In this document: piece after piece, positions 1 to 24,928 of the stretch
How the letters are laid out: each line of letters starts with the position of its first letter
How positions within the stretch are numbered: the first letter of the stretch is position 1
Source: Cladosporium halotolerans
Lineage: Eukaryota
Direction of reading: 5' to 3'
Assembly (NCBI RefSeq): GCF_011745625.1
Contig: NW_027191458.1
Coordinates: forward strand, 248,001-312,000
Length of the DNA stretch: 64,000 nt
Program-made: the position numbers and the translations under genes
The notes under the pieces: generated by a model
What the model was told of the DNA's origin: nothing
Database searches by the model: none
What the model saw: the letters and a program-made list of their open reading frames with translations, nothing else

Positions 1-3000
1 CTTCGCCATCAAGCTTGGGTTCGCCCATAGCGTCGACGCCGTTCGTATGCGGTACCTCGTCCTCAATGGCAGTCGTATCAAAGGCTTCTTTATCTTGATC
101 AACCTCGTTCAGATGCTCTTGCTCAACATCACTGCCACCATCAGGCACTTCGCCGTTCTGCACATTGGCTTGACGTTCGTTAAGCCCGTTCGTCGCATTT
201 TCTGGCTCAGGAGAATCACCGTTTGGACCAGGCGCCTCTTCCTCATCATCAACCTCACTCACATGTCTGTCGACATCCATCTCTTCCGGCTGTTCAAAAT
301 CCTCATCACTCCACACCTGCTCTCCAAAATCATCGTTCGGGACAGAGTCCGCGTTTGATTCGTCGTCAACACGGACTACGTCTTCGTCCGCCTGCTCAGT
401 ATCGCCACCCTGAGCCGGCCCGTCCATGTGCTGCACATCGACCTGCGGCAAGGTCGCTCCGCCACGAGAGACCTTTCGTTGCCTGTGCAGTCGACGCTCG
501 GCAGCCTTGAGCCGGGCGACCTCGTTCCAATCGCCGCGAGACATGGCACGGACAGAGAAGGTCTTGATCTTCAGCTCTTCGAAGTATTCTTGGCGATCAC
601 GTCCGAGACTTGCTGCGTTCGCGGTCTTCTCCCAAATTTCAGCATCGGTGGGAGTCGGCTCTCTGTGGTTGCGAGCGCTAGATAAATCGGCAGAGCTCGG
701 CGGAGCGATCTCAGGCGCCTGAACTGAATCGTTGAGTGCAGGCGCAGTCGCTGACGGAGCCCTTTGCAGGTCCCTGATTCTTGATGCGTACGACGGCCCT
801 CTGGAAGGAAGCCTTCCGGAAGCAGGAGTGGGCGCATGCGAGCTATCGGGCTCAAGAGTTCCGATTTGAGGTGATGGCTGTAGCGAGGTAGGTTGGCTAT
901 GAGGCATACCACCTTCTGGCGAGGCGCTTATTCGCTGGCTGGATGGTCGCAGTCCCCGTTGATTCTTGCTGCTGGGGGAGGCATTACTGGTCTCCTCGTC
1001 CTGTTCAGCGTGTATATGAGGCACATCGTTGCTTCTGACGGACACAGCAGCTCTCTGAGACCTTGTCGTGGAAGGATCTAGTGTCTGAAATGCTTGGCTT
1101 TCCTGAGTTGCTCGGTCCTCGCTCGACAAGGATCTCTGCAATTCTTGCGAGAGCTGCACGGCGGCGCGAGTGTCAATGCCAGATTCCATCCTTGAACGGC
1201 GGCGCTGATCGGACGAGATCGGCGTACTGCCTTCTCCCGTCTTCATTGGTGACAGGAGTTTCCGAGTTCCCTCGTTTTGTCTTCGCAGAGCTGACAATGG
1301 TGTTGGCTGCGCTGCCGGCGATGGGGCATTTACGTCTGATTGCTTTCTCACGGTGACAGAACTCCGCTTGGGCGTAGATTCAGCTAACGAAGATTGTTGT
1401 TGCTCTTGCGTCGAAGTGTCAGGCGGGACATTACCATCGTCTTCCACATCTTGGCCCTCACTAGCCAGTTGCGCCTCCAGCATATCCAAGTCGTCTGCTG
1501 GGGTCTGCTCTTGATCTTCATCTCTAACGAAGCCATCGCTCTTGCTAGTGTCCTTGACGGGAGGTTCTTGTGGTACATGCTCCGTAGTATTTTCAATGCT
1601 AGTCGTCCGACGATTACGGTCGTACTGCGCATCGAGCTCCTCGTCGGTCGGTCTCGGAGCACCAGCACGCTGCTTGCCCTTGTCGCGAGTGAATTTGAGA
1701 GTCGTCTGCGTTCCACTAGAAGGCCATATGAGACTCCCACGAGCAGTCTCCTGCTCGGCGGAGCTTACCTCGACCCTAGGGCTCGACGAGCGCTTCGCCT
1801 TCGTCGACGGCCGCTTTTTGCCCAGTTCAGTGTCGCGGTTCCTTTGAACCTGGGGTGGCGAACTTGGGACTTCCACGAGCCGAGACTGTCTATTAGTCGT
1901 GGCAGACGGTCGACGGGCCGCACGAGCCTGCATTGAGCGCTCGACTGGAGAGCTGTTGGCCAGTAGTTGAGAGCTCTCGATCTCTGGCTCATCAGCTATC
2001 CTCGAAGCGCGTATCGAACGCCCCTGATCGGCTTCTAAAGCCTTGATCTGCGCTTTGTAGCCATCAAGCTGCTTCTGCACCTCGGACATCTCCCACCGAC
2101 GGAAAAACCGGCCCTTCGCTTCTCCTGCTGGCAGGCCCTCGCGGAAAGCGCGACGGAGCTTGCAGCTATCCTTCAAAGTCCAGCCCTCGAGTTGAGCATG
2201 GTTTTGTGGAAACAAAGGATTCTTTTCCGCATTTTTCCACGCTTGGTCTTGCAAGGCTAACACTTTACGGTAGACTGAATCCTCGGAACGTTTCGGAAAG
2301 TGAGTGTCCTTGATCTCGAGAGCATCGTAACCATCGGCTATGGCACGATTCATGACCTGAATGTCGCCGAGCGGCCAAGGTTTCCGCCCTTGACCAGATC
2401 CTGGGCCAGGACTGCTGTAGTCACTGGGCGCTTCACTGACACCTTTCAAGAGCTTGATGTCGGGGTTCTGCTTCAGTAACAAAGCTTGCCGGCTGCGCAC
2501 AGCACTCGTCGTGCGGTGCTGGATCTCGAATGTTCTGACTATCTCTGCCGCACTGAGGCCTTGGCGAAAGCCTTTGAGAATATATGTATCTTCCTCAGTC
2601 GACCAAAAGCTCTTCGGTCCTTGATGAGACCGTGGGTTCTTGCTAGATGATCCCTGAGTACCAGGTAAATTTTCCGATCCTTTTGGCTTTGGTGTCAAAG
2701 TAATCATCTTTTGAACCTTTTTAAGTTTGCCTTGGTCTTTCTTCGCGGTAGATGGAGCAGTACTGAGGGGTTGTTCCTCTGGAGGAGGTGGGTCGAACGA
2801 GAGGTCGTCGAAATCATTTTCGCCTGCGATTCCCTGAAGAAGATCATCGTCCTCGATGGGATCAAATTCGTCGTCCTCCAAATTTTCTCGCTGCAAATTC
2901 AGTTGACTCTGCGTACTTGCGGCTGCTAAAGATACTCCAGATGGCGTAGGCTTTGGGCGCTGAGCAGACTCGGGTGGCTGTTGGGTGAAAGTATGAGATT

Positions 3001-4030
3001 TGCCAGAAACAGGTGTAGGAGATCGCGGCTGAGCTCGGTCGTTTTGATCATCAGCGCTCGCCAATTCAGAAGTAGCTTGCAGCTTTGAGAGCGTCTGCTT
3101 CTGTAGCCGCGGTCGACTGACGACAGGCGACACGTCCCTGCGAATTTCCGGACCAGCAGTCGATGCTCGAAATCGTTCTGCACCGGCGTTGGAAGTACCC
3201 GCAGCAGCATCTACGGGTACAGACTGTAGATCGCGAGAGCGCGTTTGATGCGTGTTTTCCGGAAAGCTGTTTGGGACGCTCTCCTCTTCGCCTTGCGGTG
3301 CCTGCGAGCCGGAGACAAGAATGTCCTCTTCGTTCTCGCCCTCCATACTCGATTGAATGACGTCGTCACGTTTCCGCTGAGGTCGTTTCCTTTTCCGACT
3401 AGAAACGCCAGGAAGCGCAGGAACAGCGAAGCCATCAGCATCCACCTTGCGGCTGCCTTCATCTGCTTCGTTTCGCTCGGGACTGCCAGGTCCCATGCTC
3501 CTCTCATGCGACTCTATAGGCGTGTCTTCGTCCACTTCGTCCAATGAGGCACCATAGCGTTCCTGCTGTATTTTGCGGCGCTTGACTTGCTCTTGTTGCT
3601 CCGAGGTCAACTCTGGCCTTGAAAAGCCCGGCGGTCGCAGGCCAGAAGTGTCTGGGACAGAGCCGTCGCGGTCGATGGCGTTCTGCAGCATGACGAGCAC
3701 CAGATCCTCCTTTGGAGATTTCGAGGAGTATCCGAGTTCTCCAACCCCGTCGTGCGAGTCGATGTCGGCGCCGAAACGGTCTTGGAGCTTGTGAAACCAT
3801 CCTTTTGCAACTTCCTCTTTCCCATAATTGCGCTCGTATCGCTCCCGAATATGTTTCCAGACGTCGGCAAAAGTCTCACTAGCTCGAGTGGGCACTGCTA
3901 TAACCTGCAGAGGTTCTTCAACCTTCGGTTGCTGGAATCGCCTAAAGAGTGAATTTGTCGGCCGGCGGGGCGGCATAATCTTGACGATGAAGCGGAATTG
4001 ATCCTCATCGTTGCGTTTTTGAGGAGCCAT
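1..4030 (-). CDS. Large protein (>1340 aa, 3' end outside window) with a putative Net1/Dnt1-like (Cdc14-binding) N-terminal domain, three Myb/SANT-like repeats and long low-complexity acidic regions
   Basis: ATG at 4030 (MAPQKRNDEDQFRFIVKIMPP...FADVWKHIRERYERNY...WFHKLQDRFGADID...RDGSVPDTSGLRP). The frame appears open to the window edge (...DAMGEPKLDGE): segments read by hand have no stop, and the ORF track lists no ORF ending in this frame. Myb-like repeats at ~2040-2620 (WSTEEDTYILKG; WPLGDIQVMNRA; WTLKDSCKLRRA). Domain names come from recalled family patterns. Confidence 0.75.
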   Translation of the reverse strand, partial: MAPQKRNDEDQFRFIVKIMPPRRPTNSLFRRFQQPKVEEPLQVIAVPTRASETFADVWKHIRERYERNYGKEEVAKGWFHKLQDRFGADIDSHDGVGELGYSSKSPKEDLVLVMLQNAIDRDGSVPDTSGLRPPGFSRPELTSEQQEQVKRRKIQQERYGASLDEVDEDTPIESHERSMGPGSPERNEADEGSRKVDADGFAVPALPGVSSRKRKRPQRKRDDVIQSSMEGENEEDILVSGSQAPQGEEESVPNSFPENTHQTRSRDLQSVPVDAAAGTSNAGAERFRASTAGPEIRRDVSPVVSRPRLQKQTLSKLQATSELASADDQNDRAQPRSPTPVSGKSHTFTQQPPESAQRPKPTPSGVSLAAASTQSQLNLQRENLEDDEFDPIEDDDLLQGIAGENDFDDLSFDPPPPEEQPLSTAPSTAKKDQGKLKKVQKMITLTPKPKGSENLPGTQGSSSKNPRSHQGPKSFWSTEEDTYILKGFRQGLSAAEIVRTFEIQHRTTSAVRSRQALLLKQNPDIKLLKGVSEAPSDYSSPGPGSGQGRKPWPLGDIQVMNRAIADGYDALEIKDTHFPKRSEDSVYRKVLALQDQAWKNAEKNPLFPQNHAQLEGWTLKDSCKLRRAFREGLPAGEAKGRFFRRWEMSEVQKQLDGYKAQIKALEADQGRSIRASRIADEPEIESSQLLANSSPVERSMQARAARRPSATTNRQSRLVEVPSSPPQVQRNRDTELGKKRPSTKAKRSSSPRVEVSSAEQETARGSLIWPSSGTQTTLKFTRDKGKQRAGAPRPTDEELDAQYDRNRRTTSIENTTEHVPQEPPVKDTSKSDGFVRDEDQEQTPADDLDMLEAQLASEGQDVEDDGNVPPDTSTQEQQQSSLAESTPKRSSVTVRKQSDVNAPSPAAQPTPLSALRRQNEGTRKLLSPMKTGEGSTPISSDQRRRSRMESGIDTRAAVQLSQELQRSLSSEDRATQESQAFQTLDPSTTRSQRAAVSVRSNDVPHIHAEQDEETSNASPSSKNQRGLRPSSQRISASPEGGMPHSQPTSLQPSPQIGTLEPDSSHAPTPASGRLPSRGPSYASRIRDLQRAPSATAPALNDSVQAPEIAPPSSADLSSARNHREPTPTDAEIWEKTANAASLGRDRQEYFEELKIKTFSVRAMSRGDWNEVARLKAAERRLHRQRKVSRGGATLPQVDVQHMDGPAQGGDTEQADEDVVRVDDESNADSVPNDDFGEQVWSDEDFEQPEEMDVDRHVSEVDDEEEAPGPNGDSPEPENATNGLNERQANVQNGEVPDGGSDVEQEHLNEVDQDKEAFDTTAIEDEVPHTNGVDAMGEPKLDGE

Positions 4031-4465
4031 TGCGGCTTCTGTGCTGGCAACGTCGTTGGCGACAGCAGCGTTGCCGTCAGTTGGTTGTCAAGGCGGTTTC
4101 ATGCCACGGCAAAGAGGATATTCGAATCCGCTGTGAAGTGAGCTCGGCGTCGGCCTGCGACCTGAAACCTTGAAGCTCTGCGCGCCGATCGCGACTTTTT
4201 CGCGACAGCCCCACTTTTAGAACGCTAAGCGCGCTGAGGGAACGCACGGGAGTAGCCGCACGCTCGTGCGCGCGCGTGCTACTGAAAGCTTAATTTGGGA
4301 ACAAAGACAATTGATTGACACGCAAGAACGCAAACGGTTGGCAGCAAACGGCAAGAAATGCACGACCTGTGCTGTATGAATTGGCTCATTGGCCACCTGT
4401 TAGATCTCCACATCACTATGATTACGAAAACGGAACACTTATCCTCCGATTCGCCCAACCGCGCC

Positions 4466-11381: not shown

Positions 11382-12629
11382 TCAAGCCGCTTTCTCCTTC
11401 AGATACCGCCCCGTGTCGCTCGCCGCGAACGAGAAGGGGCTTTTCGTCATCTCAGGGCTACGCGGGCTCATTGGCAGGGCGAAGAGGTCGTCTTCGTCCT
11501 GTCCGCTGGAGGAGTGCTGTGGCGCAGGAGGTCGCGCGAATCCTGTATCCTCAAAGGATGTAAACCCTCCTGCTCCGGCTCCGCTCGTGCCAAGCGCGTT
11601 GAGTGATCCGAGCCCTGCTTGACGCTGCTGCGCTGCGAAGGAGTCTGGCGGTCGCTGGGCTTGCATGCGGCGCTGTTGGGGCTGGCTGAGCTGGGGTGCT
11701 GGAGAGGGTGCTTGGGCGGGCTTTGCGGCGAGAGTCGAGGGCGCTGGCATGCCTTTTAGAGCGGCAAAGGCGCCGAACGAGCCTACTGCTACGTCTGAGC
11801 TCTCCGGGCTCAGCGGGTTGAAAGAGTCGCTCGGCTCGGGGGCAGGTTTCGAGGACGAGCCTCCGGGACTCAGTGCCTCTGTGGATGTACCAATCTTCAA
11901 GCCTTTTAGCTTGTCCATCAGCCTTCCTCCTCCGGGTGATCTGGGGCTTGCGGGGCCGTTCAGGTCGGCAGCTGCGAAGGGCGGTGTTTGCAATGTCATA
12001 GTCGAAGGCTTGGACAAGACGCCAAAGTTCCCTTCGATCCATTCTTTCTCCGCGATCGCCATCTGGAACCCAACTCCCTCGACATTCTCCTTCGCCTCGG
12101 CATCGATCTCCTTCTGCAGCACCTGCAAACGCTTCTTTGCCCAGATCGTGTGCAGCACGCCCTTCTTGCCCGCCGCGCGCGCCGTAGCACCTAACTCTGG
12201 GCTGAAGATCGCCGGCAAAGGGTTTGTCCGCCAAGTCACAGCGCCCTTCTGCAATCTCACAGCCGTGGGCACTGCGACGCCCGCCCCAAGCAGAAAGTAC
12301 AGCCTGTTGACCGGCACCTCAGCGTTGTCCGCGTCTTTACTGCTTGTGTTTCCTTGCTCACGAGCCGGCAACACAGTCCTCTTGCCCTCCCAGCTGATCT
12401 CCCAGTCTCCAGCGATGTCCCGCGTCGTCTCGTCGTCTTCCCATTCTACCATAAGCACCTTCGTGCCCTCCTTGCTGCGCCCGGGTTCGAACTCGAAGCG
12501 CGCGAGCGCATTGCTAGAGCTCAAGGAGGGGGATTCGACATCGTCGGGCGCGTGGGTCGGCAGCGCCTCGCTGGCGGAGGATGTGTCGACGGGGTTGAAG
12601 GGCGGCCGCGAGCCGGTCGGGGCGCTCAT
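11382..12629 (-). CDS. Uncharacterised fungal protein, 415 aa
   Basis: Long ORF with an ordered-looking core (ARFEFEPG...GTKVLMVEWEDD; GKKGVLHTIWAKKRL) and a Ser/Pro-rich tail. Confidence 0.8.
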   Translation of the reverse strand: MSAPTGSRPPFNPVDTSSASEALPTHAPDDVESPSLSSSNALARFEFEPGRSKEGTKVLMVEWEDDETTRDIAGDWEISWEGKRTVLPAREQGNTSSKDADNAEVPVNRLYFLLGAGVAVPTAVRLQKGAVTWRTNPLPAIFSPELGATARAAGKKGVLHTIWAKKRLQVLQKEIDAEAKENVEGVGFQMAIAEKEWIEGNFGVLSKPSTMTLQTPPFAAADLNGPASPRSPGGGRLMDKLKGLKIGTSTEALSPGGSSSKPAPEPSDSFNPLSPESSDVAVGSFGAFAALKGMPAPSTLAAKPAQAPSPAPQLSQPQQRRMQAQRPPDSFAAQQRQAGLGSLNALGTSGAGAGGFTSFEDTGFARPPAPQHSSSGQDEDDLFALPMSPRSPEMTKSPFSFAASDTGRYLKEKAA

Positions 12630-13422
12630 GCCTGCCTATATATATGTTGCTTTTGCGACGTCTGCCGTGTGAGGAGGGTGGGTTTGTAGGGTCTGGAGGG
12701 CGGTTCGTCCGGGCCCGGCCAGGGCGGTGCGTACAGTAGTCTGAGGCGGTGCGAGGTCTCCGTTTTCGCTGCCCTGTCGCTAGCCGAGCATGGGTGTGGT
12801 GTGGTGTGGTCCCTGGAGCCTCTAGCCTGCGCCGATAACCAACAAGATATGCAGCGCAAGTCGCGACAATACCAGCAACGGCAATCAAGAATTGTAGGTA
12901 TACAGCAGTATGCGAGATCTCACCCTACAGCCGCAGCTACAAGTATCTCACGCACGCCTCTCGCGCCGTGCGTGGGCGCGGGCTCCTTGCTTGCGTGGGC
13001 GCCGCTTACACCGACGGCGTGGCAGTACTAGTTCGAGGCCATGGAGAGCCCCTCCACTAGCTCTGCGATCGCCGCCCGCACCTCCCCGTGAAGGAAGTAG
13101 GCGCTCGGCAGGATGGCGAAACACAAGCTAGCCTGAATCAATTATAGCACGCTTTTGTGGGCCTTGTTGTGCGGCTCGTTCCGGAAAACGGATATGCTTG
13201 CAGTTATGGTTATGGGGTGCAGATATGAAAGCATGCATTGTACAAATTCAGTGTGAATTAGTCGTTACTTTTCTCTGCATCTTAAGTCTTTGTTCAGATC
13301 CAACATCCTCCGCGACAGAAACCGAAAAACAAGGAAAGTCGTGAGTCGTCAGCGTTGAGGAGCATCGCTGCATGAAGCTGACGCACGCAATCGTGGCTGT
13401 AATGTCCACGTGCTGTCCACGT

Positions 13423-14796
13423 TCACAGCGCAAGGCTGAGTCCATGGTCTTCGTATCTCGGCAGGATCTGGAGGAGGTCAGCTAAAAGGTCATTCATTCA
13501 CCAAATCCTTCTTGATATAGAAGCACTCACCTCTTGGGCAAAATTGTCCTCGCATTCGTTGATCTTCGCCGGAGCCATCCCCTCGCCGTCAGTAGGATGA
13601 CTCTCACAAATCTGCAGCGGTACTCGCAATGCCAATTCCGCATGTTGCATGCCATTCACCTTTGCCTTCACGACTACTGTGTAGTCGCGGCTGCATAGTT
13701 GGCTCGAGAACGTCGGCACGGTGCCTTCAGCCACATCGATTGGAATTGGTATCGTTCCCGAATGGCTCCTGGCATCGGTTTCGTCAACATCTAAGCTGAC
13801 ATTGTTTCGATCTGAGGCGCGGATTTCGAACTTGCCCAGTTGTCTTGTCTCCGTCCTTTCATTTGTATCAGCCCTCGCTTCGTTGAGGTCCGTCTCCCTG
13901 ACCGACGTCCGCCACCTCGTCCGGCTCTCCAGAAAATACTCGACCCTCACCCTCCGCTCTCCACTTTCAAACTCATCGTACGCCTTGCTCGCCGTCTCCC
14001 ACCCCAATCTCAACCGTCCCACAGTCCCAAATCCCCCACCACCAGACCTTCCAACCACTGGCGGTGGCTCCTCCATAGCAACCCTCAACTTCGCAAACAG
14101 CCTTGAGAACCTCCCTCTTCTCACATCTGCTTTCGCCGTCACAGACTTCCTTTCCAGCGAGCTCTCCGCGTAACTCGGTGGCTCATCCTGCGGTGCAGTC
14201 GTGACTTGTATCCTCCGAGAGGCGGAGACCGTCTGCACCGCTGTCTCTCCCGGCCGTCGGTATCGAAGCGTAGCCTGCAAGCTGTATTCAATGAGCGGCT
14301 GCATGTAGAGGCGGCCCCAGGGGTCGACGTACGGGGAGCCCGCTTCGCAGGACGGTGGGAGATTGCTTTGGTTGGAGTTATGGGAAGGAGCCAGAGAGGG
14401 CAAGACGAAGCCGACGGATATAGTGGTCGAGTCTCCAGATCTGGTGGTGTTGATTTGGCCGCGCGCGTGAGAGGGGTTGGTGGATTGACTGAGGTGTGTG
14501 TGGATCATTGTTTGGTAGAAGTCGGGGAGGGCTGGTGGTTGCGACCAGACGCGGGTTTGGCCTGGATGGAATGTCAGTATTTTGCATCGACTTGAGTGAA
14601 GTGGTGCGTCAGGCTTACCGACTAGTGAGCAGTGTAACGACAGTGCTTCGAATGGTCGGTGTTTGTGCACTGAGATCGATACTGGAATGACGTTGCCTGG
14701 TCGGTAGATTGGATGCTTCGTCATCGACTGCGATGGGTTTGAGGAGCAGGTGATCGCTAGAGACGTAAATGGTCCGGTAGTGAAGCTTGGGTCCAT
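13423..14796 (-). CDS. Arrestin-like (alpha-arrestin/ART-type) adaptor; exons 14796-14619, 14561-13531, 13467-13423
   Basis: Arrestin-sandwich patterns (PIYRPGNVIPVSI, LPPSC, IEYSLQATL, VPTFSSQLCSRDYTVVV...LRVPLQI) and PY motifs PPSY and LPRY (last exon ILPRYEDHGLSLAL*). Introns 14618-14562 and 13530-13468 have canonical donor, CTGAC and CAG. Confidence 0.75.
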
Positions 14797-15004
14797 GTTG
14801 TTGTCTCGTGAGAGGTGAGCTTTGATCAATTAGGTTGCTGCTGTGATGAAGCTGGGTACTGTAAACGTTGCGCTGACACCGCAGGAGCGTTCCGATGCAT
14901 CAAATGAATTGCTTACACAGCGGGCGTTGTAGAGCGAGTCAGCATTCACCTTGATATATAAAGGTGTGTATTAAGCGTAACAGAGCGCTTAGGTGTGGTA
15001 CAAA

Positions 15005-15174
15005 TTCGGCGAAACCTTTCGGCGAAATCGGCGACACGTATAGTACCGCCGAACAAATCTTGACAAGAGCAGGGCAATGCATCGCAGAGTCAACACTGAT
15101 GAGTAATGCTTTCATTTCGAGCATGATGTGCCTTTCAGAATCGCAGGCATCAATCTTGCCTCAAGTTCGCCGAA
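15005..15174. promoter_or_regulatory. Cluster of TTCG(G/C)CGAA palindromic sites in the divergent arrestin/MFS promoter
   Basis: TTCGGCGAAA at 15005-15014 and 15018-15027, TCGGCGA 15028-15034, CCGCCGAA 15046-15053, TTCGCCGAA 15166-15174. Confidence 0.6.
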
Positions 15175-15303
15175 TTAGCATCCTGACAAGCAGGTATTTA
15201 AGTAGGGAACCATACTAGCTAGACTTGTTTTCGTTGACACTGGCAACATCCGCATTCACTCACTTCTTAACTAGCAATTTTGATATATCTCTCTTCCCTG
15301 GCA

Positions 15304-16750
15304 ATGCCTCACACTGAAGACAACGCAAAATTCTCGGCGCAAAGGGACGCATCCGTGGAAAGGGGAATCGCGGCCGATGCCTCGAGACAGGGCGACTACA
15401 ACAACTCAGGAATACCAGACAACTTGCTCAAGAAAGAGTATCAGGTCCCCGAAGGTGGACGCCGTGGATACACAGTCCTGTTTGGTAGCTTCATGGCTAT
15501 CATGGGCGGTCTTGGCCTTATGAACAGCATAGGCATCTACCAGGCCCGGGTTGCTTCTGCCCAGTTGCCTCAGATCTCGACCGGCTCGATTGGATGGATC
15601 TTTGGTGTCTACAATTTCATGGCCTTCTTCGGTGGGATACAGATCGGCCCTCTCTTTGACCGTTACGGTCCGACATGGCTTCTCTTGGCTGGGCTCGTTC
15701 TGTACATCGCTTTCTTCGTGCTCTTGAGCTTCTGCAAAGCCTATTGGCAGTACTTCGTGGTCATTGGAGTATTTGGCGGCGCGGCTACATCGATCATATT
15801 CGTGGTGCCCGTGGCCTGTCTCGGCCACTACTTTGACAGAAGACGAGGGGCAGCCACTGGCCTGGCAATGTCCGGAGGGAGCCTGGGCGGCATCATGTTC
15901 CCTCTCTTGCTCGATCACCTTTGGAGTCGAATCGGTTTCGCATGGGGGACTAGGGCCGTTGGTCTGATCACGATCGTTCTTGTGGCGCTTGGTTGTATTC
16001 TGATCCGACCGAATCCAGACTTCCCGCTCGGACACGAACAGAGTTCGAAAGGCAAGCGAAGCGTCCTTCCCGACTTTTCGATCCTGCTGATACCTTCAGT
16101 CGCTCTCATGGCTGCCGGAGTCTTCTTCATCGAATGGGGCTTCTTCGTCGGCTTGGAGTACGTCGCCTCATATGCTCTGAGCCATGGCATCGCGAGAGAT
16201 CAAGCGTATCAAATGGTCGTCTATCTCAATGCGGGATCGTTCCCAGGCCGATGGCTGCCGGGATTTCTTGCGGACAAGTTTGGTCGGCTGAACACGATGA
16301 TTGCTACGAACATCCTTTGCGCCATTGCCATGTTGGCCATATGGTTGCCGGCCAATGGTAATTTGGCTGCGACCATTGTCTTTGCAGTAGTCTTTGGCTT
16401 CGCGAGCGGAAGCAACATCAGCCTGGTGCCGGTTTGCGTAGGCGAGCTGTGCGACACGCGGGAGTACGGACGCTACTATACCACTGTTTATACTGTGGTT
16501 AGCATCGGGTGAGTTGATCATTCACATATTGGAGAAGCCTTGAATCTGTTCTAACTTCTTTGGTAGGGCTCTCACTGGCGTTCCCATTGCCGGCGAAATT
16601 GTGCACGGCGACGGCGTAGGGTACACGGGCTTGATTGTGTTCGCAGGGGCTTCTTATGTCGCTGGGCTAGCGTGCTTTGGTGCTTTGAAGCTGTACACTT
16701 TGAGACGTCGCAGTAAGAATGAGAAGCACTGTTCTCAAGATGACATCTGA
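15304..16750 (+). CDS. MFS transporter, monocarboxylate porter (MCT/Mch-like) family; exons 15304-16508, 16567-16750
   Basis: 12-TM pattern with GPLFDRYGP, YFDRRRGAATGLAMSGGSLGGIMFP and GFLADKFGR. Intron GTGAGT...CTAAC...TAG gives the final exon ALTGVPIAGEIV...DDI*. Confidence 0.92.
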
Positions 16751-16988
16751 GGTTGATGCCATTGTTGTTGTCGCATCTCAAGACCGCAAAGCCAGGCCGT
16801 GCCCAACTTCACGTCAGGACAAGGTCAGGCGTTTTGCCATCTCATAGGTAGATTACACTGATGGCCGATGTGGAATTTCTCACACGGGATGTTTTTCACA
16901 TGCAGAAGATCGTTTTCACAGCAAGGTGACGCGGTCGGCTTTGATTGCATGCCACGCCACAGCAAGTCATCGGTTGAGCCAAGAGCAA

Positions 16989-17028
16989 TTTCGCCGAAAG
17001 TTGGCTCATTTCGGCGAGGACGCCGAAC
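16989..17028. promoter_or_regulatory. TTCG(G/C)CGAA-type sites immediately upstream of the Zn2Cys6 gene
   Basis: TTTCGCCGAAA 16989-16999, TTTCGGCGAG 17009-17018, CGCCGAAC 17021-17028. Confidence 0.55.
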
Positions 17029-17070
17029 AAAGAAACTGGACTTCGCCCAACATCAAACCTCATCGACGCA

Positions 17071-19311
17071 ATGCCCCGAGCATCTCCAGCAAGACAATAT
17101 CGTTCTTTGAAACGTAGCAAGCCATGCGACAGGTGTCGTGAAGCGAAAACGCGCTGTCAAGTCCTCGAAGGCCCGTCATGCTCGAAATGTCAGCGAGCAA
17201 GATTGCCCTGTAGCTTCTCCAGCACATCGCAGACAGGGCTCGGTTCTGGAGCTGAGAATGATGTCCAGACAACTCCAGCACCTACTTCTCTAAGCCAGCA
17301 TGAAGGCTCGTCGGTCGAGCCGTGGCCGCAGACTCCCACGGCAAGTGCGGCCACCGCTGCTTCTGCTTCGCAGACCGGTGACCGCATTTGGTCAGCCCAA
17401 CATACGCCGGCCATACAGAATTCCGAGGCAGAACTCAAGATCAATACTCAATTCTCGCAGAGCCTGGAAGGCATTGAAGGCATCTCTGCTCAACTTTTCG
17501 GAGCCTCTTCAGAATCCGATCCATGGTTGTTACGCCACTGTAAGTTCGATGACTTCGGCAGTCGGTCGTTTCAGAACTCGCAATACCGGAATGCTGGCGG
17601 CGTGCCGTTCGCACACAAGATCCCGATTCATTTCTTGATCGAGTCGGATAGACTTCGCGAGAGTGCGAAGCGAGAGACCGAATTTCCCGAGAAGCAGATC
17701 GCCTCCCGCGAAGAATTGGACGCCATCGTGCCACCTGTTTATGGGCAACGGCTTGTTGCGCTGTAAGTTCGTCATGCATCATGCAACCATGTATACCTCA
17801 GTACTGACCAAATTGCAGCTTCATTAAGCATGTTTTCCCGATGCTTCCGGTTATCTCTCGCTCGCAGCTAGGCATAACGCCAACAAACCCTCTCCCGTCC
17901 TGGGCAGCCCTGCAGAGATGCCCTTTACACCTCCTGGGAGCCATATATGCACTTGCATTGAGATTCGTCTCAGAAGACGACTATCTGGCTGTATGGAGCT
18001 CGCAGACCTCACCTTCGAGCGGCGTAATGTGGAGGCTGGTGTACGAACAGTTGCAAGAAGAGGTCCATCGACCTCAGCTTGCAGTTCTCCAAGCGACTTT
18101 GCTCTATCTGCACAAAGAGCCTGGCGATGAAAGAGAATACTCTCTATCTGACACGCCTTTCGTGTGGTCATGGGTCGGCAAGCTTGTTGGTCTTACCATG
18201 TCGCTTGGCGTTCAAACAGAGTGTTCGATGTGGGCCATTCCAGCTTGGGAAAAACGGCTTCGGAAAAGGCTCTGGTGGGCTGTCTATGCCGAAGACAAAT
18301 GGAGATCTCTGTTGATGGGCCGGCCTCCGTACATTCACAGTCAGGAATGGGACATTGAAGACTTGGACGTTAGCCACTTCGCACTCGGATCGTCCAACGC
18401 AACGGGTGAGGGCGGTGCTGGGTTTCGGAGTTTTATAGCACTCACACGAATTGCTGAGTCTATACAACAATCGTTGTACTCACTCAGGGCTTCGCAGCGC
18501 TTGTCGACTGATTTGACTGCCTCTGTCCAGACGGCCAGACCTCTATTGGCACGACTGAACGTCTGGCGGTCAACACTGGCAGACAGCGTACGCCTTGCAG
18601 ATGGTCATCATTTGAGCCATGGCACGGGAACTCAATCGTCCATTCACTTTGCGTACTATATCTTGGTGATATACGTGTACCGCGCACTTTTCAGGCCGAT
18701 GGTGCCTTCCAACATCCCACCGCACATAATCGATCTTGAAGAGCCGATCATGGACGATCCTATAGGTCTCCCGGAGTTTAATTGGGACGCGGCTGCAATG
18801 GCAAACGATGTGCCGTTCCCAGCTCTGGACAGCCCATCGGATTCGCAGATGGAAGTCATTGAAGACATTACACGGGCAGCGAACGAATGTGCTGCCGGTA
18901 TGATGAACCTGGTAGGCCATTTCTCGTTTAGAGATCTCAGCAGGTTCTGGTATTCCTGTAAGTACATTTGCGGCACTGTCTTCATAGACGTCACACGTTG
19001 TGGTCAAAAGACGAACTAACATATCATCGCTGATAGGGTCTCGCATCGGGTTCGCCGTTACCTCAAACTTCATCATTCTTTTACTCGTTCAAGCTCCTAG
19101 CGCCCAGTATGCGATGAAGTCAAAACAGTTACTCGATATCTGGAACAGGTTACTCAGAGATCAATGCCGTATCTGCCCCACAGTAAGACTTGGGCTTATG
19201 CGACTCAACGCACTTCAATCGGCTGGCTTATCAGAAACGTTTGATCTACCTCCACACGTCGAACAGGTACTGGCAATGCGGAGGGATACTAACATGGAAC
19301 ATGTCATATGA
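17071..19311 (+). CDS. Zn2Cys6 transcription factor with fungal TF middle-homology domain (Dal81/TamA-like); exons 17071-17762, 17819-18957, 19037-19311
   Basis: CDRCREAKTRC...CSKC...C binuclear cluster, GASSESDPWLL, and RKRLWWAVYAEDKWRSLLMGRPPYI. Introns 17763-17818 and 18958-19036 (GTAAGT...CTRAC...YAG) join the three ORFs in frame. Confidence 0.92.
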
Positions 19312-19727
19312 TCTCTCCAATCGTCTGAATCACTTAAGGGGCTTGAGCACACCTCGGGTTGGTCGGACCTTGTCACACGACTGATCTCTGGCAATGGCAA
19401 TTTCCCATCACAACGACCACAGGACAATTGTATTGTTACATGGACGTTAACAAAGAGGCATGGGTGGGCTTCAATGCCCAGCAAGTTCACTTCGTTCTTT
19501 GTCAACCTTGTATCTGGTCGAGCCCACGAAATCTTTGTTGGATTTCACACAACATACGCCATGTGTATATTACGCCCACAATGTACATCGCAGTCAGTCT
19601 CCTCCGACCAACAGCGAACAACACCACCGCAAGAGATCCAAAAGCACTCCGGTAGTGCTTCGAAGTTTCTTCCGATACCAGCTGTTCAACCCCAACAATC
19701 ACCATTCAGAGTTCCTTCGCTGCTACG

Positions 19728-20354
19728 ATGAACGTCTCGACGTCCCACAATAGCAGCTTATTCTCGGGCTCCCCGACTTCGGCCAACAAGACGTCGTCTC
19801 CCTCCAATTTCCCTTGTGCCAACATGAGCATGCCTTTTAGGCACCTCATGAACGGCACTATCCACAACGCCCACACCGCGGTCTACCACTCTCCGGCCCT
19901 CCACGCCCGCAACATCGACTCCAAGGAAAACCAGGGCCTCCACGCCGGCGCCATTCTTGGCATCGTGCTCGCAATCATCGTCGGCATCGCCCTCCTCCTC
20001 TTCATGATGGGCTGGGCCGTGCGCTCCCACCGCGCCGCCTACGCCAACTCAGGCAACACCCGCGCTCGCACTCGTAGGCACGTGAGCCCCGGCCATCTCG
20101 AAGCCGGCGGCAACATCCAGTATCCTGCCCGCTCCTACGGCGGTAGCAGGGAGAAGACGCCGAAGTTCCCGGGTCCGAGGAATGGGTATGCTTCCGCTAA
20201 GTCTTCTGTGAGGAGTTCGGCGCCGTCGAAGGCTTATACTCCTTCGCATGCTTCGAGGGGCAGATGCCCGTATGCGGATGACACTCCGTTCTCGGCTGTG
20301 CCAACTATGGAGGCTAGGAGTCAGGCTGGGAGCAGCCGCAGGGGCTCTTCCTGA
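19728..20354 (+). CDS. Hypothetical single-pass membrane protein
   Basis: 208-aa ORF with one TM helix (GAILGIVLAIIVGIALLLFMMGWAV) and a basic Ser-rich tail. The start may be a downstream Met. Confidence 0.7.
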   Translation: MNVSTSHNSSLFSGSPTSANKTSSPSNFPCANMSMPFRHLMNGTIHNAHTAVYHSPALHARNIDSKENQGLHAGAILGIVLAIIVGIALLLFMMGWAVRSHRAAYANSGNTRARTRRHVSPGHLEAGGNIQYPARSYGGSREKTPKFPGPRNGYASAKSSVRSSAPSKAYTPSHASRGRCPYADDTPFSAVPTMEARSQAGSSRRGSS

Positions 20355-20707: not shown

Positions 20708-23700
20708 TCATTCCAAAGGCCTGCGATTGTTGGCAACGCATTCCTTCACGTACTTCCGCCAAACAGAATCTACCTTGACTGCCTTCTCAAGAAGCTCTGC
20801 ATGGGAGAACCTCCCCCATTCTTGGGACTTCGGAAACTTCTGTATTAGCTCTGATTGGGGTATCCCAAGGATTTGCAGCACAACATCTTTCGCCTCGACC
20901 CACTCGTGGGTATCCCCGGACCTTGGATATGGCTCGGGACACTCATAGAGACCACTGTGTGTGCTTGCATCAGGACAGACGCAGACGGGTCCATGGCAGA
21001 GTGGTGCGCTGACGCAAATTTCCACTTCGGTGCTTGCACCTGCTTCCAAGAATATGGTCATTGCTTCCAAAATCGCAGACTTCTCCCTAGCGAATGTGAT
21101 TTTTGGGACAGATTGCCGGTCGAGCATATTCATGAACCCGCACACTGTTCGCAGAAAATCGGTCCATACATTATTGCTGCAAGGTAAATAGTACGCCTTC
21201 GGTTGGCTTGACGCAGTGGCAGTGTCTCGAGCAGACAGCTCGTGCTCGGACACAGCACGGCGTGTATACCAGAGGCGAAGATCATGCCCTTCCACATCGT
21301 CAAATGCATTGTCGCTCTCAATCTCTTTCGGATCGACAAACCCTGTTTTTGTTTCGAATACGAGTTTGACGACGTCCTCAATTAGACCATAATGCCGATA
21401 TCGGGCAAGTTGGAGTATGAGATAAGCCCAGCCATCCCAATATTTACGGAGTCGACTTCGTTGAAAGCTATGAGAAACAAGACGTCTGAAAGCTGCTCTG
21501 GCGGAATCTTCGCAGGCTTGAACTGCGGGTTTGTTGAAAGTGCCATCTGCATGCCACAACGTCGCCGCAGAGTAATCCTCCAGACCATTGGCGAGCTGGA
21601 TTGTATGCAAATCGAGACCCCTAAGAGATGAATTCGATGCCCCTTCGAACTTGTCAACCTTTATTTGAAACTCTAACATTTCCAGTTCTAAGAGAAATTC
21701 CGGCGCTTTGAAATGCTTGGGCACATGGGCATCGATCTTTGACCGCATTTTGGTTGACCGAAGGAAATCGTAGATGACCCTATGCTGGTATTCGATCCCA
21801 TGTGGCATCAATGAAGGATTATACGCCGTGGCTGGCGAAAGGGCCATCAAGTCTTTGCAGCGTGTCTCCACAAAGACACGCATTGTGTTATGTACAGCCC
21901 GGCACTCAGCCACATCATCATCGACGGACGCAAGACATGTGGCAAACCCTTGGCTGTGCGCAATACCACGCCCGCTTTGTATGCTTTTTTGCAGCATCCA
22001 CATGAAGAAATATCGGATGTGGGAGTCGTTGGTTTCTGCGGCAAGCTTGAGGGCCATTGCGCACTCAGAATTCCCGTCTGTTCTGTAGGTAGAATGTATT
22101 CGAGAATAGACCAGCTGGTACAAGTATTTCTCGACTTCTTGAGGGAGTTTCTTGATGTATCGACCCATCTCAGTTGCGCTTTCACCGCCGGCCAACCGTT
22201 CACACACGGGGCTTAACGCAAAAGTGACCCAGAGTAAGTTGCCGTCCGCCTTAGCACAAAGTTCACGTATGAGACGCTTTGGAGGATCCAGAGAGTCGAG
22301 CGCTTTCCAGTATTCCGTGTAGGAGCCTTGATGTATCCGCATGCACGTGAGCTCGAACAGACCCATGTCATTGCCAGCATCTTCGAAGAGACCCCTATTG
22401 GCTGACTGAAGGCGATGGCAAACCAGCTGGAAAATATCCCACGCACTGTTCTCCGGCAGCTTGAGACGTGGCCACTCAGAGAATGCACTCTCAAACTCCG
22501 TCCAGGGTCTGCTTGACACGCATACCTTGACATTTGTTTCTTTGAGGAGGTCGACAAGCAGGGCGATAAGTTCTTGCCTTTCTTGCCTCTCTTGCTGTTC
22601 CTTGGCCCCACATTCGTCCAGTCCGTCAATGATGATGTAGGTCTTAAACCCCAGTGTTGATATGATCCTCGTCAAGGCTTGCAGCAGCGATTTTGGATTC
22701 CAGGACAGTCCACGCATGGACATGCCACGCTGCCATTCATCCGGGAAAGCAACCTTCGCCAGGACGTCGTACTGCTCGATGGCTTGGTAGCAGAGGTGTT
22801 GAAGCATAGCCTTCAAAGAGCGTTGCTGGAGATCGCCTCCTGCAATCCAGAAATAGTGATCCAACATGAGCACCTTGTCCCCGCTTGCATGTGTCTGCAG
22901 AGCGGAAGAGGTGCGCCTGTCGAGACGCAAAGACTTCATGAATACTGATTTCCCAGTTCCTGGTTCGCCGGAGATCCAGCAATGTGAGATTGATGAGTTC
23001 AACCACTGGTGCGTTGGCTGCTTGCTGTCCTCGAACGCCCAATCGTAGGACGAGCCGGTTGGATCGGCAATCATTTCTTTCCGCGAGTTCATGCTGTTGT
23101 AGGCGAGGCTAGACAAGAGGTCCTCGACTCTTTGCTTCTCGAGGGCATTAAGCTGGTGCTGCGCCACCCTAGCAACTTGCTGTAGGACGGCCTGCATTGC
23201 ATTTTGCAGCGCATTGAGCTTGTTCACCAGCGCAGTCTGTGCCTCCCGCACGACAGTGACACAGTCCCTGCCCTGACGGTCCACCATCTCTCGCAGCTCT
23301 CCGAAGCCTTCTTGATCGGATCGTTTGATAGCATACAGAAGGAGCGCAGCAAGTTGTCGTTCGAGATCCCCAAGCTTCTTGTGCCTAGCCTGAAGATCGC
23401 CACGCTTCAGCATGACCTTGCACGCTGTTCTTGCTGCTCTCAGCTTCGACTTAGTGCCATCAGAGCGTAGAGGGACCTTCATCGTTTGGAGTAGAGCAGT
23501 GATGGCCGAAGACTCCTCTAGACATCTTCCTGCAAGCTTCGCCACGGCTGCATCAGGCTTGGTCAGAGGACCAGTATCCTTGCTCATGTTCTGAAGATCT
23601 TCTGCCAGCTGTCGACTTTGGCCGGCTACCTCTTCAATCCACTCTTGTTCTGGCAAAGCATCGCCGGCTGATTTGATAAGCTTGCCAGTGGCAATGGTGA

Positions 23701-23767
23701 GCTCTGCTGTGAATTGAGTGACGGTTATGACACTGCTGACAAGGCTTAAGACTGCTACACCCTCCAT
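20708..23767 (-). CDS. NACHT/STAND (NLR-like) NTPase with a fungal STAND N-terminal helical domain
   Basis: N-terminus MEGVAVLSLVSSVITVTQF (typical of the SesA/HeLo-like class), Walker A WISGEPGTGKS, Walker B YIIIDGLDE, KVCVSSRPW, ADGNLLWV, HRVIYDFL. Intronless. Confidence 0.9.
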   Translation of the reverse strand: MEGVAVLSLVSSVITVTQFTAELTIATGKLIKSAGDALPEQEWIEEVAGQSRQLAEDLQNMSKDTGPLTKPDAAVAKLAGRCLEESSAITALLQTMKVPLRSDGTKSKLRAARTACKVMLKRGDLQARHKKLGDLERQLAALLLYAIKRSDQEGFGELREMVDRQGRDCVTVVREAQTALVNKLNALQNAMQAVLQQVARVAQHQLNALEKQRVEDLLSSLAYNSMNSRKEMIADPTGSSYDWAFEDSKQPTHQWLNSSISHCWISGEPGTGKSVFMKSLRLDRRTSSALQTHASGDKVLMLDHYFWIAGGDLQQRSLKAMLQHLCYQAIEQYDVLAKVAFPDEWQRGMSMRGLSWNPKSLLQALTRIISTLGFKTYIIIDGLDECGAKEQQERQERQELIALLVDLLKETNVKVCVSSRPWTEFESAFSEWPRLKLPENSAWDIFQLVCHRLQSANRGLFEDAGNDMGLFELTCMRIHQGSYTEYWKALDSLDPPKRLIRELCAKADGNLLWVTFALSPVCERLAGGESATEMGRYIKKLPQEVEKYLYQLVYSRIHSTYRTDGNSECAMALKLAAETNDSHIRYFFMWMLQKSIQSGRGIAHSQGFATCLASVDDDVAECRAVHNTMRVFVETRCKDLMALSPATAYNPSLMPHGIEYQHRVIYDFLRSTKMRSKIDAHVPKHFKAPEFLLELEMLEFQIKVDKFEGASNSSLRGLDLHTIQLANGLEDYSAATLWHADGTFNKPAVQACEDSARAAFRRLVSHSFQRSRLRKYWDGWAYLILQLARYRHYGLIEDVVKLVFETKTGFVDPKEIESDNAFDDVEGHDLRLWYTRRAVSEHELSARDTATASSQPKAYYLPCSNNVWTDFLRTVCGFMNMLDRQSVPKITFAREKSAILEAMTIFLEAGASTEVEICVSAPLCHGPVCVCPDASTHSGLYECPEPYPRSGDTHEWVEAKDVVLQILGIPQSELIQKFPKSQEWGRFSHAELLEKAVKVDSVWRKYVKECVANNRRPLE

Positions 23768-24928
23768 GTCGATGGCGATGGTGAATGCCGAAGGACGAGA
23801 AGCTGAACCTGCTGAAGTCTTGCTGCAGAAGAGAACGATGAGCGAAGAGCAATCCGCATTCGAGAGAATGAACGAGGCTGTGTTCTGCTCTCCGGGTGGG
23901 GTTGGGCACACATGGCGTTATGCAAATGCAGGCGCGGTGGCGGGCTCAGCTTCACGTAGCGATGGCTGCGAGGCTGCGCAAAGGCGTTGTTTGCACGAAT
24001 CACCGGGCCGCCGAGCCTTCAGCTGATGGCTATCGCAACCTATCAAAACCACAACCTGCTGTGGAACGGTAAGAGCTGAGGCAACTTGCATGTAGCTGCG
24101 CCCACCGGGGCCCTGAAAGTAGCCTGACATCTTGAACGGCATCATTCTCTAGGCTTGAACCTATTGAATGGTTGCTGCCTGTTGCCCATTCGAAGATATT
24201 CGTCGGTTCTTAAAGTAAGCTCTACGAAAAGTTGGCTCCAAAGGCTGGGTGACATGGCGCAGCCATTCAGGCTGACTTTGCATCAGCCATCGTCTTATTG
24301 CCTGTAGCCGCCAAGGCCTTGGTTGCCGTGAAGGTACATACTCAGCCTCTCAAGAATCGAGACCGTCTTCGCCAGGCTTGTGATCACCGCGGCACGAGGT
24401 TTGAAGTGTTGACTCCCTTCGCGGGCTGAGTCTTCGTCGGCGAAACTTCGACCGCGCATACTTATGATAAAATTCAGTGGTAAAATGAGTCTCGTAATCA
24501 TCGTTGCATATGAACTTATCGATCATGCTCACACGTAAACCATGGCCTTTCACTCACATGCAGGCGTCATATGTGCTCGTGTAAGTACTCGATCAGTGCT
24601 TTTTCACGCTCTCTCGCGTAGGTTCCGTCGCGTTGTATGCTCATCTGACCATCTAACGCGTTGCTGTCCGTTCGAACGACCAAACTCTACAGCAACACTG
24701 AGCGTGCTGCTCTTCTTCTTCGTGTTGCTCGCGAGCTGACCTTCCATTGCTGACCGAAATCGCATCCAGATTGCGATGGCGCAGTCGATACATCGGCTTC
24801 TTCCGCTCCGTCGACCGTGAAAGGGCATATGTTCTTGCGGCCCATACTTCTAGCATGGCGCCTGATTGTGTACGAGACACCTCCCATGTTCCTTTCAAGT
24901 GAAATAAGAGGTGTCTAGAACCGCTCCT

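Follow-up and report, generated by a model that had tools for sequence, protein, structure and literature searches.

The cargo and the signal of most fungal alpha-arrestins are unknown, and their genes normally come without a positional clue to either. The 64-kb stretch of DNA analysed here (hereafter the window) raises the question of whether such a clue can exist, as it contains an alpha-arrestin-type gene (ARR) beside genes for an MFS transporter (MFS) and a Zn2Cys6 transcription factor (TF). The fungal MFS and Zn2Cys6 families are very large, and the adjacency of these genes alone is therefore not beyond chance.

Gene Organization of the Locus

ARR encodes a 417-aa protein on the minus strand, with its ATG at 14796 and exons at 14796-14619, 14561-13531, and 13467-13423. 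It is oriented divergently to MFS, an MCT/MCH-type gene on the plus strand that was delineated from a Pfam MFS_1 match and a gene model (exons 15304-16508 and 16567-16750; 462 aa), and the two start codons are separated by a 507-bp divergent promoter region (14797..15303). A spacer of 320 bp (16751..17070) leads from the MFS stop codon to the ATG of TF, which encodes a 701-aa Zn2Cys6 protein on the plus strand (exons 17071-17762, 17819-18957, and 19037-19311; Pfam and gene model). An earlier note on this DNA had described a block made up of an arrestin-like gene with PPSY and LPRY motifs, an MCT-type MFS gene, and a Zn2Cys6 gene, and all three genes and both spacers were recovered. Its observation that the block holds no enzyme also stands: the flanks are occupied by UP417, a conserved 417-aa ORF with no Pfam family (11382-12635, minus strand), and, on the opposite side, by the small ORF DN232 (19656-20354, plus strand) and a NACHT protein (20708-23917). 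UP417 and DN232 lie outside the module and serve as markers of a collinear block.

Some of the introns are supported by spliced contigs from runs that are 90-99% alike to the window. One such contig of run X3 supports the joint across intron 2 of ARR (13467>13531), and contigs of runs X2 and X3 support that across intron 1 of TF (17762>17819). Rough support for ARR intron 1 comes from run X6, which skips 58 letters with one letter between. The ARR introns are also backed by the gene models of homologues, and spliced contigs of both ARR and TF are present among the assembled contigs of close relatives, in favour of their transcription there.

Predicted Fold and PY Motifs of ARR

The AlphaFold2 (AF2) model of ARR, built on a 72-sequence alignment, has a pLDDT of 84.4 and a pTM of 0.82, and replaced an earlier, poor model from a 36-sequence alignment (pLDDT 57.7); structure searches with that poorer model had pointed in the same direction. 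Every match listed by Foldseek for the final model belongs to the arrestin clan, including Vps26 (E 1.9e-10), TXNIP, ARRD-6, and beta-arrestins. VIA-align superposes ARR onto beta-arrestin-1 with a Z score of 17.2 and an rmsd of 4.4 over 281 residues (span 2-404), and onto the alpha-arrestin ARRD-6 with a Z score of 16.6 over 291 residues. The arrestin fold, which the earlier note had named beforehand as one of the points on which its proposal could fail, thus appears as a two-lobed structure in the AF2 model and in both structural comparisons. At the level of sequence profiles, Pfam Arrestin_C scores 27.1 bits, just below its cut-off of 27.7, and Bul1_C scores 16.5; 26 relatives of ARR likewise give only sub-threshold matches to Pfam arrestin profiles, and a profile of the ARR family found no match among PDB sequences at E<=10. 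The Atlas neighbours of ARR are clusters annotated as 'Arrestin-like N-terminal domain' (score 0.96).

The PPSY motif (14181-14170, minus strand) lies where the two arrestin lobes are joined, in a linker modelled with a pLDDT of 61-66. Its P-P-x-Y positions are invariant in all 36 aligned family members, and PPxY is also found in 11/11 related loci that reach this part of ARR. The LPRY motif (13464-13453, minus strand) is located in the C-terminal tail, within the 15-codon last exon, and LPxY(E/D)DH is encoded in each of the 10 related loci that contain the ARR 3' end. This retention in relatives agrees with the reading of the earlier note, which had pointed to both motifs.

The family itself is narrow. 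Searches gave 35 matches, in which both named members are Cladosporium, and 13 representatives make up the orthologue group at E<=1e-30, the matches falling off steeply beyond the first 11 listed; no member was seen in Aspergillus wentii or Hirsutella. Nearly all of the more distant relatives of ARR come without an organism name, the single exception being Xylogone sp. The two-lobed fold is common to ARR and the fungal alpha-arrestins, such as yeast Art1-10 and Bul1/2 and Aspergillus nidulans ArtA-G, CreD, ApyA, and PalF. ARR differs from these proteins, however, in being much smaller (417 aa), in carrying one of its PY motifs in the segment that links the lobes, in matching no Pfam arrestin profile at cut-off, and in the narrowness of its orthologue group. 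The characterised ARTs are larger than 417 aa. Fungal alpha-arrestins are typified by [L/P]PxY motifs, a type of sequence recognised by the WW domains of Rsp5/HulA (PMC9105457, PMC8050425), and ARR carries such motifs. Taken with the predicted fold, this makes it likely that ARR is a PY-dependent ligase adaptor.

The Transporter and the Regulator

The MFS protein matches Pfam MFS_1 with an E value of 1.4e-35, and its homologues are annotated as 'MFS monocarboxylate transporter', 'MCT family MFS transporter', or 'Riboflavin transporter MCH5'. Judged by sequence, it is a member of the MCT/MCH family, in agreement with the label it had been given previously, though the annotated names do not imply a substrate. 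The TF protein matches Zn_clus (E 1.1e-6) and the fungal-specific middle homology domain Fungal_trans (E 7.9e-17) in Pfam. Its zinc cluster (~17122-17229, plus strand), CDRCREAKTRCQVLEGPSCSKCQRARLPC, fits the pattern CX2CX6CX5-12CX2CX6-8C. The description of this factor as Dal81-like found no echo, as neither Dal81 nor TamA occurs among the names of the 120 homologues listed or of the Atlas clusters, names being all that was compared.

A Palindrome Common to the Two Spacers

The near-palindrome TTCG-N-CGAA occurs in four exact copies in the 64-kb window, against 0.79 expected, and all four fall inside the 827 bp that make up the two spacers of the module; a promoter motif shared beyond chance is therefore indicated. 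Three exact TTCGSCGAA copies lie in the ARR-MFS spacer (15005-15013, 15018-15026, and 15166-15174). The copies on the ARR side are ~209-230 nt away from the ATG of that gene, a placement shared with relatives, and one copy precedes the MFS ATG by 130 nt. The MFS-TF spacer contains the fourth exact copy (16990-16998) and a one-mismatch copy (17010-17018), 54-81 nt upstream of the TF ATG. This TF-proximal element may sit in the 5'UTR. One-mismatch copies are scattered through the window (34 vs 18 expected) and were not used as evidence.

In 12 non-redundant related loci, 19 copies were counted in 8,948 bp of TF-ARR intergenic or ARR-upstream DNA, compared with none in 87,489 bp elsewhere. The TF-ARR intergenic regions of relatives carry two copies each, at conserved distances of ~65 nt from the start codon of TF and ~210-250 nt from that of ARR. 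The core of the motif is invariant while the letters that flank it diverge, and alignment of the window spacers to the intergenic DNA of relatives returned short motif matches only. The palindrome in the arrestin-transporter-regulator spacers is new here; a literature search for the motif strings returned primers only. Known palindromic Zn2Cys6 sites include the AflR site TCG-N5-CGA and the Ume6 site URS1. TTCG-N-CGAA resembles these in its inverted TCG/CGA half-sites and CGG-containing core, but differs from them in its single-base spacing.

The earlier note had proposed that one factor co-regulates the module, which fits a single conserved palindrome upstream of TF, ARR, and MFS. We consider it somewhat more probable than the opposite that one regulator is common to the three promoters. 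That this regulator is the adjacent TF, to which the motif is assigned by inference, is a slightly less than even prospect.

The localization of the motif also bears on an alternative, namely that the genes have no functional link and that the locus reflects inherited synteny and one lineage-specific gene gain, with the palindrome serving another factor or the TF promoter only. In its favour, these fungi possess MFS and Zn2Cys6 genes in such numbers that chance often brings them together. Confinement of the motif to the regions upstream of TF, ARR, and MFS, both in the window (4/4) and in relatives, and an invariant core within divergent flanks argue against it.

Conservation of the Regulator-Arrestin Pair

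All nine informative loci from related metagenomes hold TF and ARR directly adjacent in head-to-head orientation, at a distance of 0.7-1.1 kb and without MFS; these loci represent eight lineages, judged from pairwise ARR identities of 55-85%. The transporter gene is found in 0/13 related loci, and tblastn at E up to 10 detected no remnant of it in nine TF-ARR intergenic regions. The expectation of the earlier note that ARR, MFS, and TF form a conserved syntenic unit was therefore not borne out; the arrestin gene instead retains both position and motif where no transporter gene is linked to it. TF and ARR are a conserved divergent pair with a common cis element across lineages, albeit within a larger collinear block.

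This block, DUF7703-DN232-TF-ARR-UP417, comprises at least five genes. UP417 is 73-79% identical in seven loci, each time just past ARR, and DN232 is 27-34% identical beside TF in four (L001, L002, L010, and L012). As the pair sits within the block, its adjacency alone could be inherited synteny, which favours the absence of a functional link. The same explanation gains from a second extra gene in the window, the NACHT gene, which lies between DN232 and DUF7703 and has no counterpart at this position in L001. It does not account well for TF-MFS adjacency, which recurs across three fungal classes, and overall we regard it as unlikely.

By locus tags, TF and MFS homologues are adjacent in A. wentii (two assemblies) and Hirsutella minnesotensis, that is, in two of the eight named species with tags of both families, where paralogues are possible. 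The nearest homologues in six Penicillium species have distant locus tags and are not adjacent. Two further contigs (8111 and 6756 bp) suggest TF-MFS adjacency, only because the contigs holding the TF and MFS matches are equal in size. The orthology of the H. minnesotensis TF is unsure since its match is partial (54% coverage) and long-branched (1.24 in a quick TF tree). In this tree, the MFS-linked TFs of the window and of the 6756-bp contig fall outside two large TF-ARR-only clades, and the base is a polytomy.

These observations are pertinent to a tighter model, close to that of the earlier note, in which TF co-induces the transporter together with a dedicated arrestin that solely removes it, the three genes having formed an ancestral cluster. 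The palindrome common to all three promoters, the TF-MFS adjacency in the outgroups A. wentii and H. minnesotensis, and the position of the MFS-linked TFs in the tree, which leaves room for an ancestral trio with later loss of MFS, are in its favour, as are precedents for a regulator-induced arrestin that lowers a transporter, namely Csr2/Art8 (PMC8050425) and TXNIP (PMC9105457). However, TF, ARR, and the motif stay together in eight lineages without a linked MFS and without its remnants, the tree is unresolved at its base, and the arrestin family is narrow and was not seen in A. wentii or Hirsutella. Such a closed loop is improbable. We judge equally unlikely its fullest version, that the locus is an intact ancestral nutrient circuit in which one palindrome switches on the regulator, an MCT-type importer, and the PY arrestin that removes the importer, and that in relatives the regulator and the arrestin stayed together as a core while the transporter gene, still under that motif, moved to another place.

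A Proposed Regulator-Centred Mini-Regulon

The trio is best explained, with a probability of roughly 0.5, as a loose, regulator-centred mini-regulon and not as a fixed three-gene cassette; it is called loose because relatives keep only the arrestin-regulator pair together. The Zn2Cys6 factor would probably bind TTCG-N-CGAA as a dimer, and the copies just upstream of its own gene would provide autoregulation. Through the same palindrome upstream of the divergent ARR and, in this genome, of the MCT-type MFS, all three genes would rise and fall together. ARR, a compact alpha-arrestin by its predicted fold and by the conserved PY motifs of its linker and C-terminal tail, may then recruit the Rsp5/HulA ubiquitin ligase to membrane cargo for endocytosis, by analogy with characterised alpha-arrestins. 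The candidate cargo here is the co-regulated MFS, and relatives hold TF-ARR without a linked MFS. That the adjacent transporter is in fact the cargo is doubtful; a complex prediction with the MFS exon-1 protein and ARR (score 0.00, mark 0.34) speaks neither for nor against binding.

The conserved unit is an arrestin with a transcription factor and not an arrestin with a transporter, which also suits a signalling arrestin resembling PalF/Rim8 of pH sensing. ARR would in that case act upstream of TF, coupling a membrane sensor, perhaps MFS as a transceptor, to activation of the factor, instead of adapting a nutrient carrier for endocytosis. PalF/Rim8 provides a fungal precedent for an arrestin that signals to a transcription factor (PMC8050425), regulation through the hinge is described for Rim8 (PMC4472021), and one PY motif of ARR is located in the hinge. 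Against this, the locus showed neither a gene for a 7-TM sensor nor an ESCRT-linked partner, and action of TF on ARR is a simpler explanation of the common promoter motif than action of ARR on TF. We consider signalling of this kind very unlikely.

The proposed mini-regulon has counterparts in which a nutrient-responsive factor sets the level of an arrestin that in turn downregulates the matching transporter, as outlined for Mig1/2-Csr2(Art8)-Hxt6/7 in yeast (PMC8050425) and for MondoA/ChREBP-TXNIP-GLUT1 in mammals (PMC9105457). The genes of the Csr2 and TXNIP circuits are unlinked, whereas here the arrestin gene is head to head with a pathway-type regulator and has a palindrome in common with it. 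The arrestin Rod1/Art4 controls the lactate transporter Jen1, an MFS-superfamily protein that carries monocarboxylates (PMC8050425). This pair differs in that Jen1 is an SHS and not an MCT/MCH family member, in the lack of gene linkage, and in control by phosphorylation after glucose addition. Fungal pathway-specific Zn2Cys6-transporter pairs, in which the regulator adjoins its presumed permease, are matched by the arrangement in the window, A. wentii, and H. minnesotensis; the window departs from the usual pairs in having no catabolic enzyme and an arrestin gene in the enzymes' usual place. A limited literature search at the level of abstracts found no description of an arrestin-regulator or arrestin-transporter gene pair.

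Implications for Arrestin Biology

Gene position and a palindrome of sharply restricted location connect a small arrestin family that has gone unstudied with one particular regulator gene and, in one lineage, also with a candidate cargo. The locus offers a testable trio of regulator, putative binding site, and adaptor, whether the transporter is included or not. Should the link fail, the locus would be ordinary synteny among members of large gene families; should the intact ancestral circuit prove true, ARR would be the first alpha-arrestin hard-wired, genetically and transcriptionally, to its cargo and regulator. If the link is true, it would show that a pathway-specific regulon can include turnover by an arrestin, and a shared motif would provide a genomic route to predicting arrestin cargoes.

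Genes of the locus

The stretch from 13423 to 19311 of the window lies in fungal DNA carrying spliced genes, with a G+C content of about 53-57% in this region, and is occupied by three genes. The arrestin-like gene (ARR) is on the reverse strand (exons 14796-14619, 14561-13531, and 13467-13423; ATG at 14796) and encodes 417 aa, including a PPSY motif encoded at 14181-14170 and an LPRY motif read from the sequence of the last exon of 15 codons (13467-13423). The MCT-type transporter gene (MFS) is on the forward strand (exons 15304-16508 and 16567-16750; 462 aa; Pfam MFS_1, E 1.4e-35) and is followed, on the same strand, by the Zn2Cys6 regulator gene (TF; exons 17071-17762, 17819-18957, and 19037-19311; 701 aa; Zn_clus, E 1.1e-6; Fungal_trans, E 7.9e-17), whose zinc cluster has the pattern CX2CX6CX7CX2CX6C. 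The spacers described in the earlier note were correct, at 507 bp between the ATG codons of ARR and MFS and 320 bp between the MFS stop and the TF ATG, while the label of TF as "Dal81-like" finds no support in any name among the listed homologues or clusters.

Three introns of these gene models are backed by spliced contigs from sequencing runs of relatives that are 90-99% alike to the window: ARR intron 2 by run X3 (joint 13467-13531), TF intron 1 by runs X2 and X3 (joint 17762-17819), and ARR intron 1, roughly, by run X6. One X2 contig, covering 13368-13963, skips 68 nt within ARR exon 2 (13748-13815, GT..AG on the plus strand) while retaining ARR intron 2 unspliced, and looks like a spliced transcript of a close relative, antisense to the 3' part of ARR.

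The trio is flanked by a conserved ORF of 417 aa that matches no Pfam family (UP417; 11382-12635, reverse strand), a small ORF (DN232; 19656-20354, forward strand), and a NACHT protein gene. The other large ORFs of the window belong to varied Pfam families, mostly housekeeping, and Pfam identified among them no core enzyme of secondary metabolism, be it a PKS, an NRPS, or a terpene synthase. Two very long open frames without a Pfam family at E<=1e-4 are present, at 2-4087 on the reverse strand (1362 aa, cut by the window end) and at 52180-55935 on the forward strand (1251 aa).

ARR as an arrestin

Sequence profiles by themselves are borderline on the identity of ARR as an arrestin. Pfam Arrestin_C scores 27.1 bits, slightly below its 27.7-bit cut-off, Pfam matches fall below cut-offs for the window ARR and 26 relatives, and the family profile has no match among PDB sequences. 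A language-model look-up places a Cladosporium ARR homologue with clusters labelled "Arrestin-like N-terminal domain" (score 0.96). An AF2 model built from a 36-sequence alignment was poor (pLDDT 57.7); with distant relatives from the exhaustive search added, for 72 sequences in all, pLDDT reached 84.4 and pTM 0.82. The sole stretch of at least three residues below pLDDT 50 in this model, residues 60-77, corresponds to intron 1 read through in frame, as expected if that intron is real. Every match listed by Foldseek belongs to the arrestin clan (Vps26, E 1.9e-10; TXNIP; ARRD-6; beta- and visual arrestins), and VIA-align superposes the model on both lobes of beta-arrestin-1 (Z 17.2, rmsd 4.4, 281 residues) and on the alpha-arrestin ARRD-6 (Z 16.6, 291 residues). 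The predicted structure settles the arrestin identity of ARR, bearing out the arrestin-like call of the earlier note.

The PY motifs reported there are likewise present and kept in relatives. PPSY is positioned in the inter-lobe linker (pLDDT 61-66), and LPRY in the tail, which is flexible. All 36 aligned family members keep P-P-x-Y unchanged, as do 11/11 related loci reaching that part, and LPxY(E/D)DH is encoded in each of the 10 loci that include the ARR 3' end. With its arrestin fold and conserved PY motifs, ARR has both structural features of an alpha-arrestin and presumably acts as one biochemically, in which case it would bring Rsp5/HulA to membrane cargo. A PalF-like signalling role, with ARR acting upstream of TF, is an unlikely alternative for ARR.

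The ARR orthologue group is narrow: a word-indexed search returned 35 matches, both named ones being from Cladosporium, and 13 representatives at E<=1e-30 came from the exhaustive search, whose scores fall steeply after the first 11 listed. The tail of the exhaustive profile search contains 284 small arrestin-like fungal representatives at E<=0.001, and the ARR superfamily forms a large branch of arrestins with poor annotation. These small proteins (P0367-P0505) span 180-580 aa among the 150 listed, and 0/26 scanned reach the Pfam cut-off.

Gene order in related loci

Scanning metagenome contigs with the ARR alignment yielded 13 loci (L001-L013) with ARR identities of 46-54%, representing 12 distinct ARR lineages (pairwise ARR identity 55-85%; L009 and L010 are the same). 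These were queried by tblastn with the spliced ARR, MFS, and TF of the window and the flanking ORFs. A single arrangement was found, DN232(-) TF(-) ARR(+) UP417(+), with TF directly beside ARR, head to head and 678-1070 bp apart, in 9/9 loci whose upstream DNA is long enough (L001-4 and L009-13); L005-L008 stop too near ARR to inform on TF adjacency. No MFS match at E<=1e-5 occurs in any of the 13 loci, and the nine TF-ARR intergenic regions contain no MFS remnant at E<=10 except a 15-residue chance match (E 3.2). The trio is not a conserved module across these loci.

The TF-ARR pair sits within a larger collinear block, and its adjacency by itself could therefore be inherited synteny. Plain synteny of this kind, with no functional tie between the genes, is in our judgment unlikely. 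Equal contig sizes provide indirect agreement with TF-ARR linkage, since ARR P0031 and TF P0168 are on contigs of 4873 bp and ARR P0005 and TF P0212 on contigs of 25222 bp. UP417 is 73-79% identical in seven loci, far above ARR (about 50%) or TF (about 52-62%), and is an unannotated yet strongly constrained protein. On the other side of the trio, a 1069-aa NACHT/NPHP3_N protein gene (20708-23917, reverse strand) separates DN232 from a DUF7703 gene in the window, whereas in L001 the DUF7703 gene (79% identical) directly follows DN232; the locus therefore has a second gene specific to its lineage, the NACHT gene.

A shared palindrome

Comparison of intergenic DNA identified the near-palindrome TTCGSCGAA, or TTCG-N-CGAA. 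The 64-kb window has four exact copies in all, three of them in the ARR-MFS spacer (15005, 15018, and 15166) and one upstream of TF (16990), against 0.79 expected from shuffles of the window, of which 1/100 reached four; a further copy with one mismatch is found at 17010. Each of the nine TF-ARR intergenic regions of relatives contains exactly two palindromes, one some 65 nt ahead of the TF ATG and the other some 210-250 nt ahead of that of ARR, and the ARR-side copy is also present in L005, L007, and L008. Across the 12 non-redundant loci, 19 palindromes occur in 8,948 bp of TF-ARR or ARR upstream DNA vs. none in the remaining 87,489 bp, and the nine core bases never vary, in contrast to the flanks, which differ among lineages. 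Spacing in the window is as in relatives, both on the ARR side (209-230 nt from the ATG) and on the TF side, with one further palindrome 130 nt before the MFS ATG; the MFS gene is placed between the two ancestral palindrome positions.

This distribution is the strongest evidence for a common regulator of these genes. The candidate for that regulator, which would also act on its own gene, is the adjacent Zn2Cys6 TF, because the site is palindromic, contains CGG, and lies where it does.

Linkage of transporter and regulator elsewhere

MFS has 871 homologues, with source names of MCT or MCH transporters. Homologues of TF and MFS are neighbours by locus tag in Aspergillus wentii (MW887_005982/005981; AWENTII_012739/012740 in a second assembly) and in Hirsutella minnesotensis (HIM_06621/06622), where TF orthology is unsure because the match is partial and on a long branch. 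Equal contig sizes suggest the same adjacency in a near-identical relative (both on 8111-bp contigs) and in one with 79% MFS and 63% TF identity (both on 6756-bp contigs). The nearest TF and MFS homologues have distant locus tags in the six Penicillium species compared (P. bovifimosum, P. sp. DV-2018c, P. canescens, P. angulare, P. alfredii, and P. atrosanguineum).

A quick TF tree has a Dothideomycete-like clade (44 rows, support 99), with the A. wentii and Hirsutella TFs placed apart from it in another clade. Within the Dothideomycete-like clade, the two MFS-linked TFs (window and 6756-bp contig) fall outside two large clades that contain every TF-ARR-only locus, and at its base the tree is a polytomy. 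Parsimony favours an ancestral TF-MFS linkage from which MFS was later lost, but the tree does not show this. In a quick MFS tree, the window clade joins Sordariomycete sequences (support 99), apart from Aspergillus and Penicillium, a grouping that is unexpected against the species tree; none of the 120 MFS homologues listed has a Dothideomycete name. Gene transfer or old paralogy is a possible origin of the window MFS.

A candidate regulator-centred mini-regulon

The tighter version in the earlier note, a dedicated loop in which this ARR removes this MFS transporter, has precedents among unlinked genes, namely the transcriptionally induced arrestin Csr2/Art8 (as described in PMC8050425, section 2.2) and, for glucose, the feedback loop of TXNIP (as described in PMC9105457, section 5.4). 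Against it, eight lineages keep ARR, TF, and the palindrome with no linked transporter, and we regard this loop as improbable. We favour, at roughly even odds (about 0.5), a regulator-centred mini-regulon, in which TF would drive its own gene, ARR, and, in the window, an MCT-type carrier through a single palindrome, and ARR would recruit Rsp5/HulA to a cargo in the membrane.

In the literature searched, judged from titles and abstracts, no report was found of an arrestin-regulator or arrestin-transporter gene pair, nor anything on the palindrome strings. ARR, MFS, and TF are each of a known kind; it is in wiring that the locus differs, with arrestin and regulator genes that stand head to head and have a palindrome to themselves.
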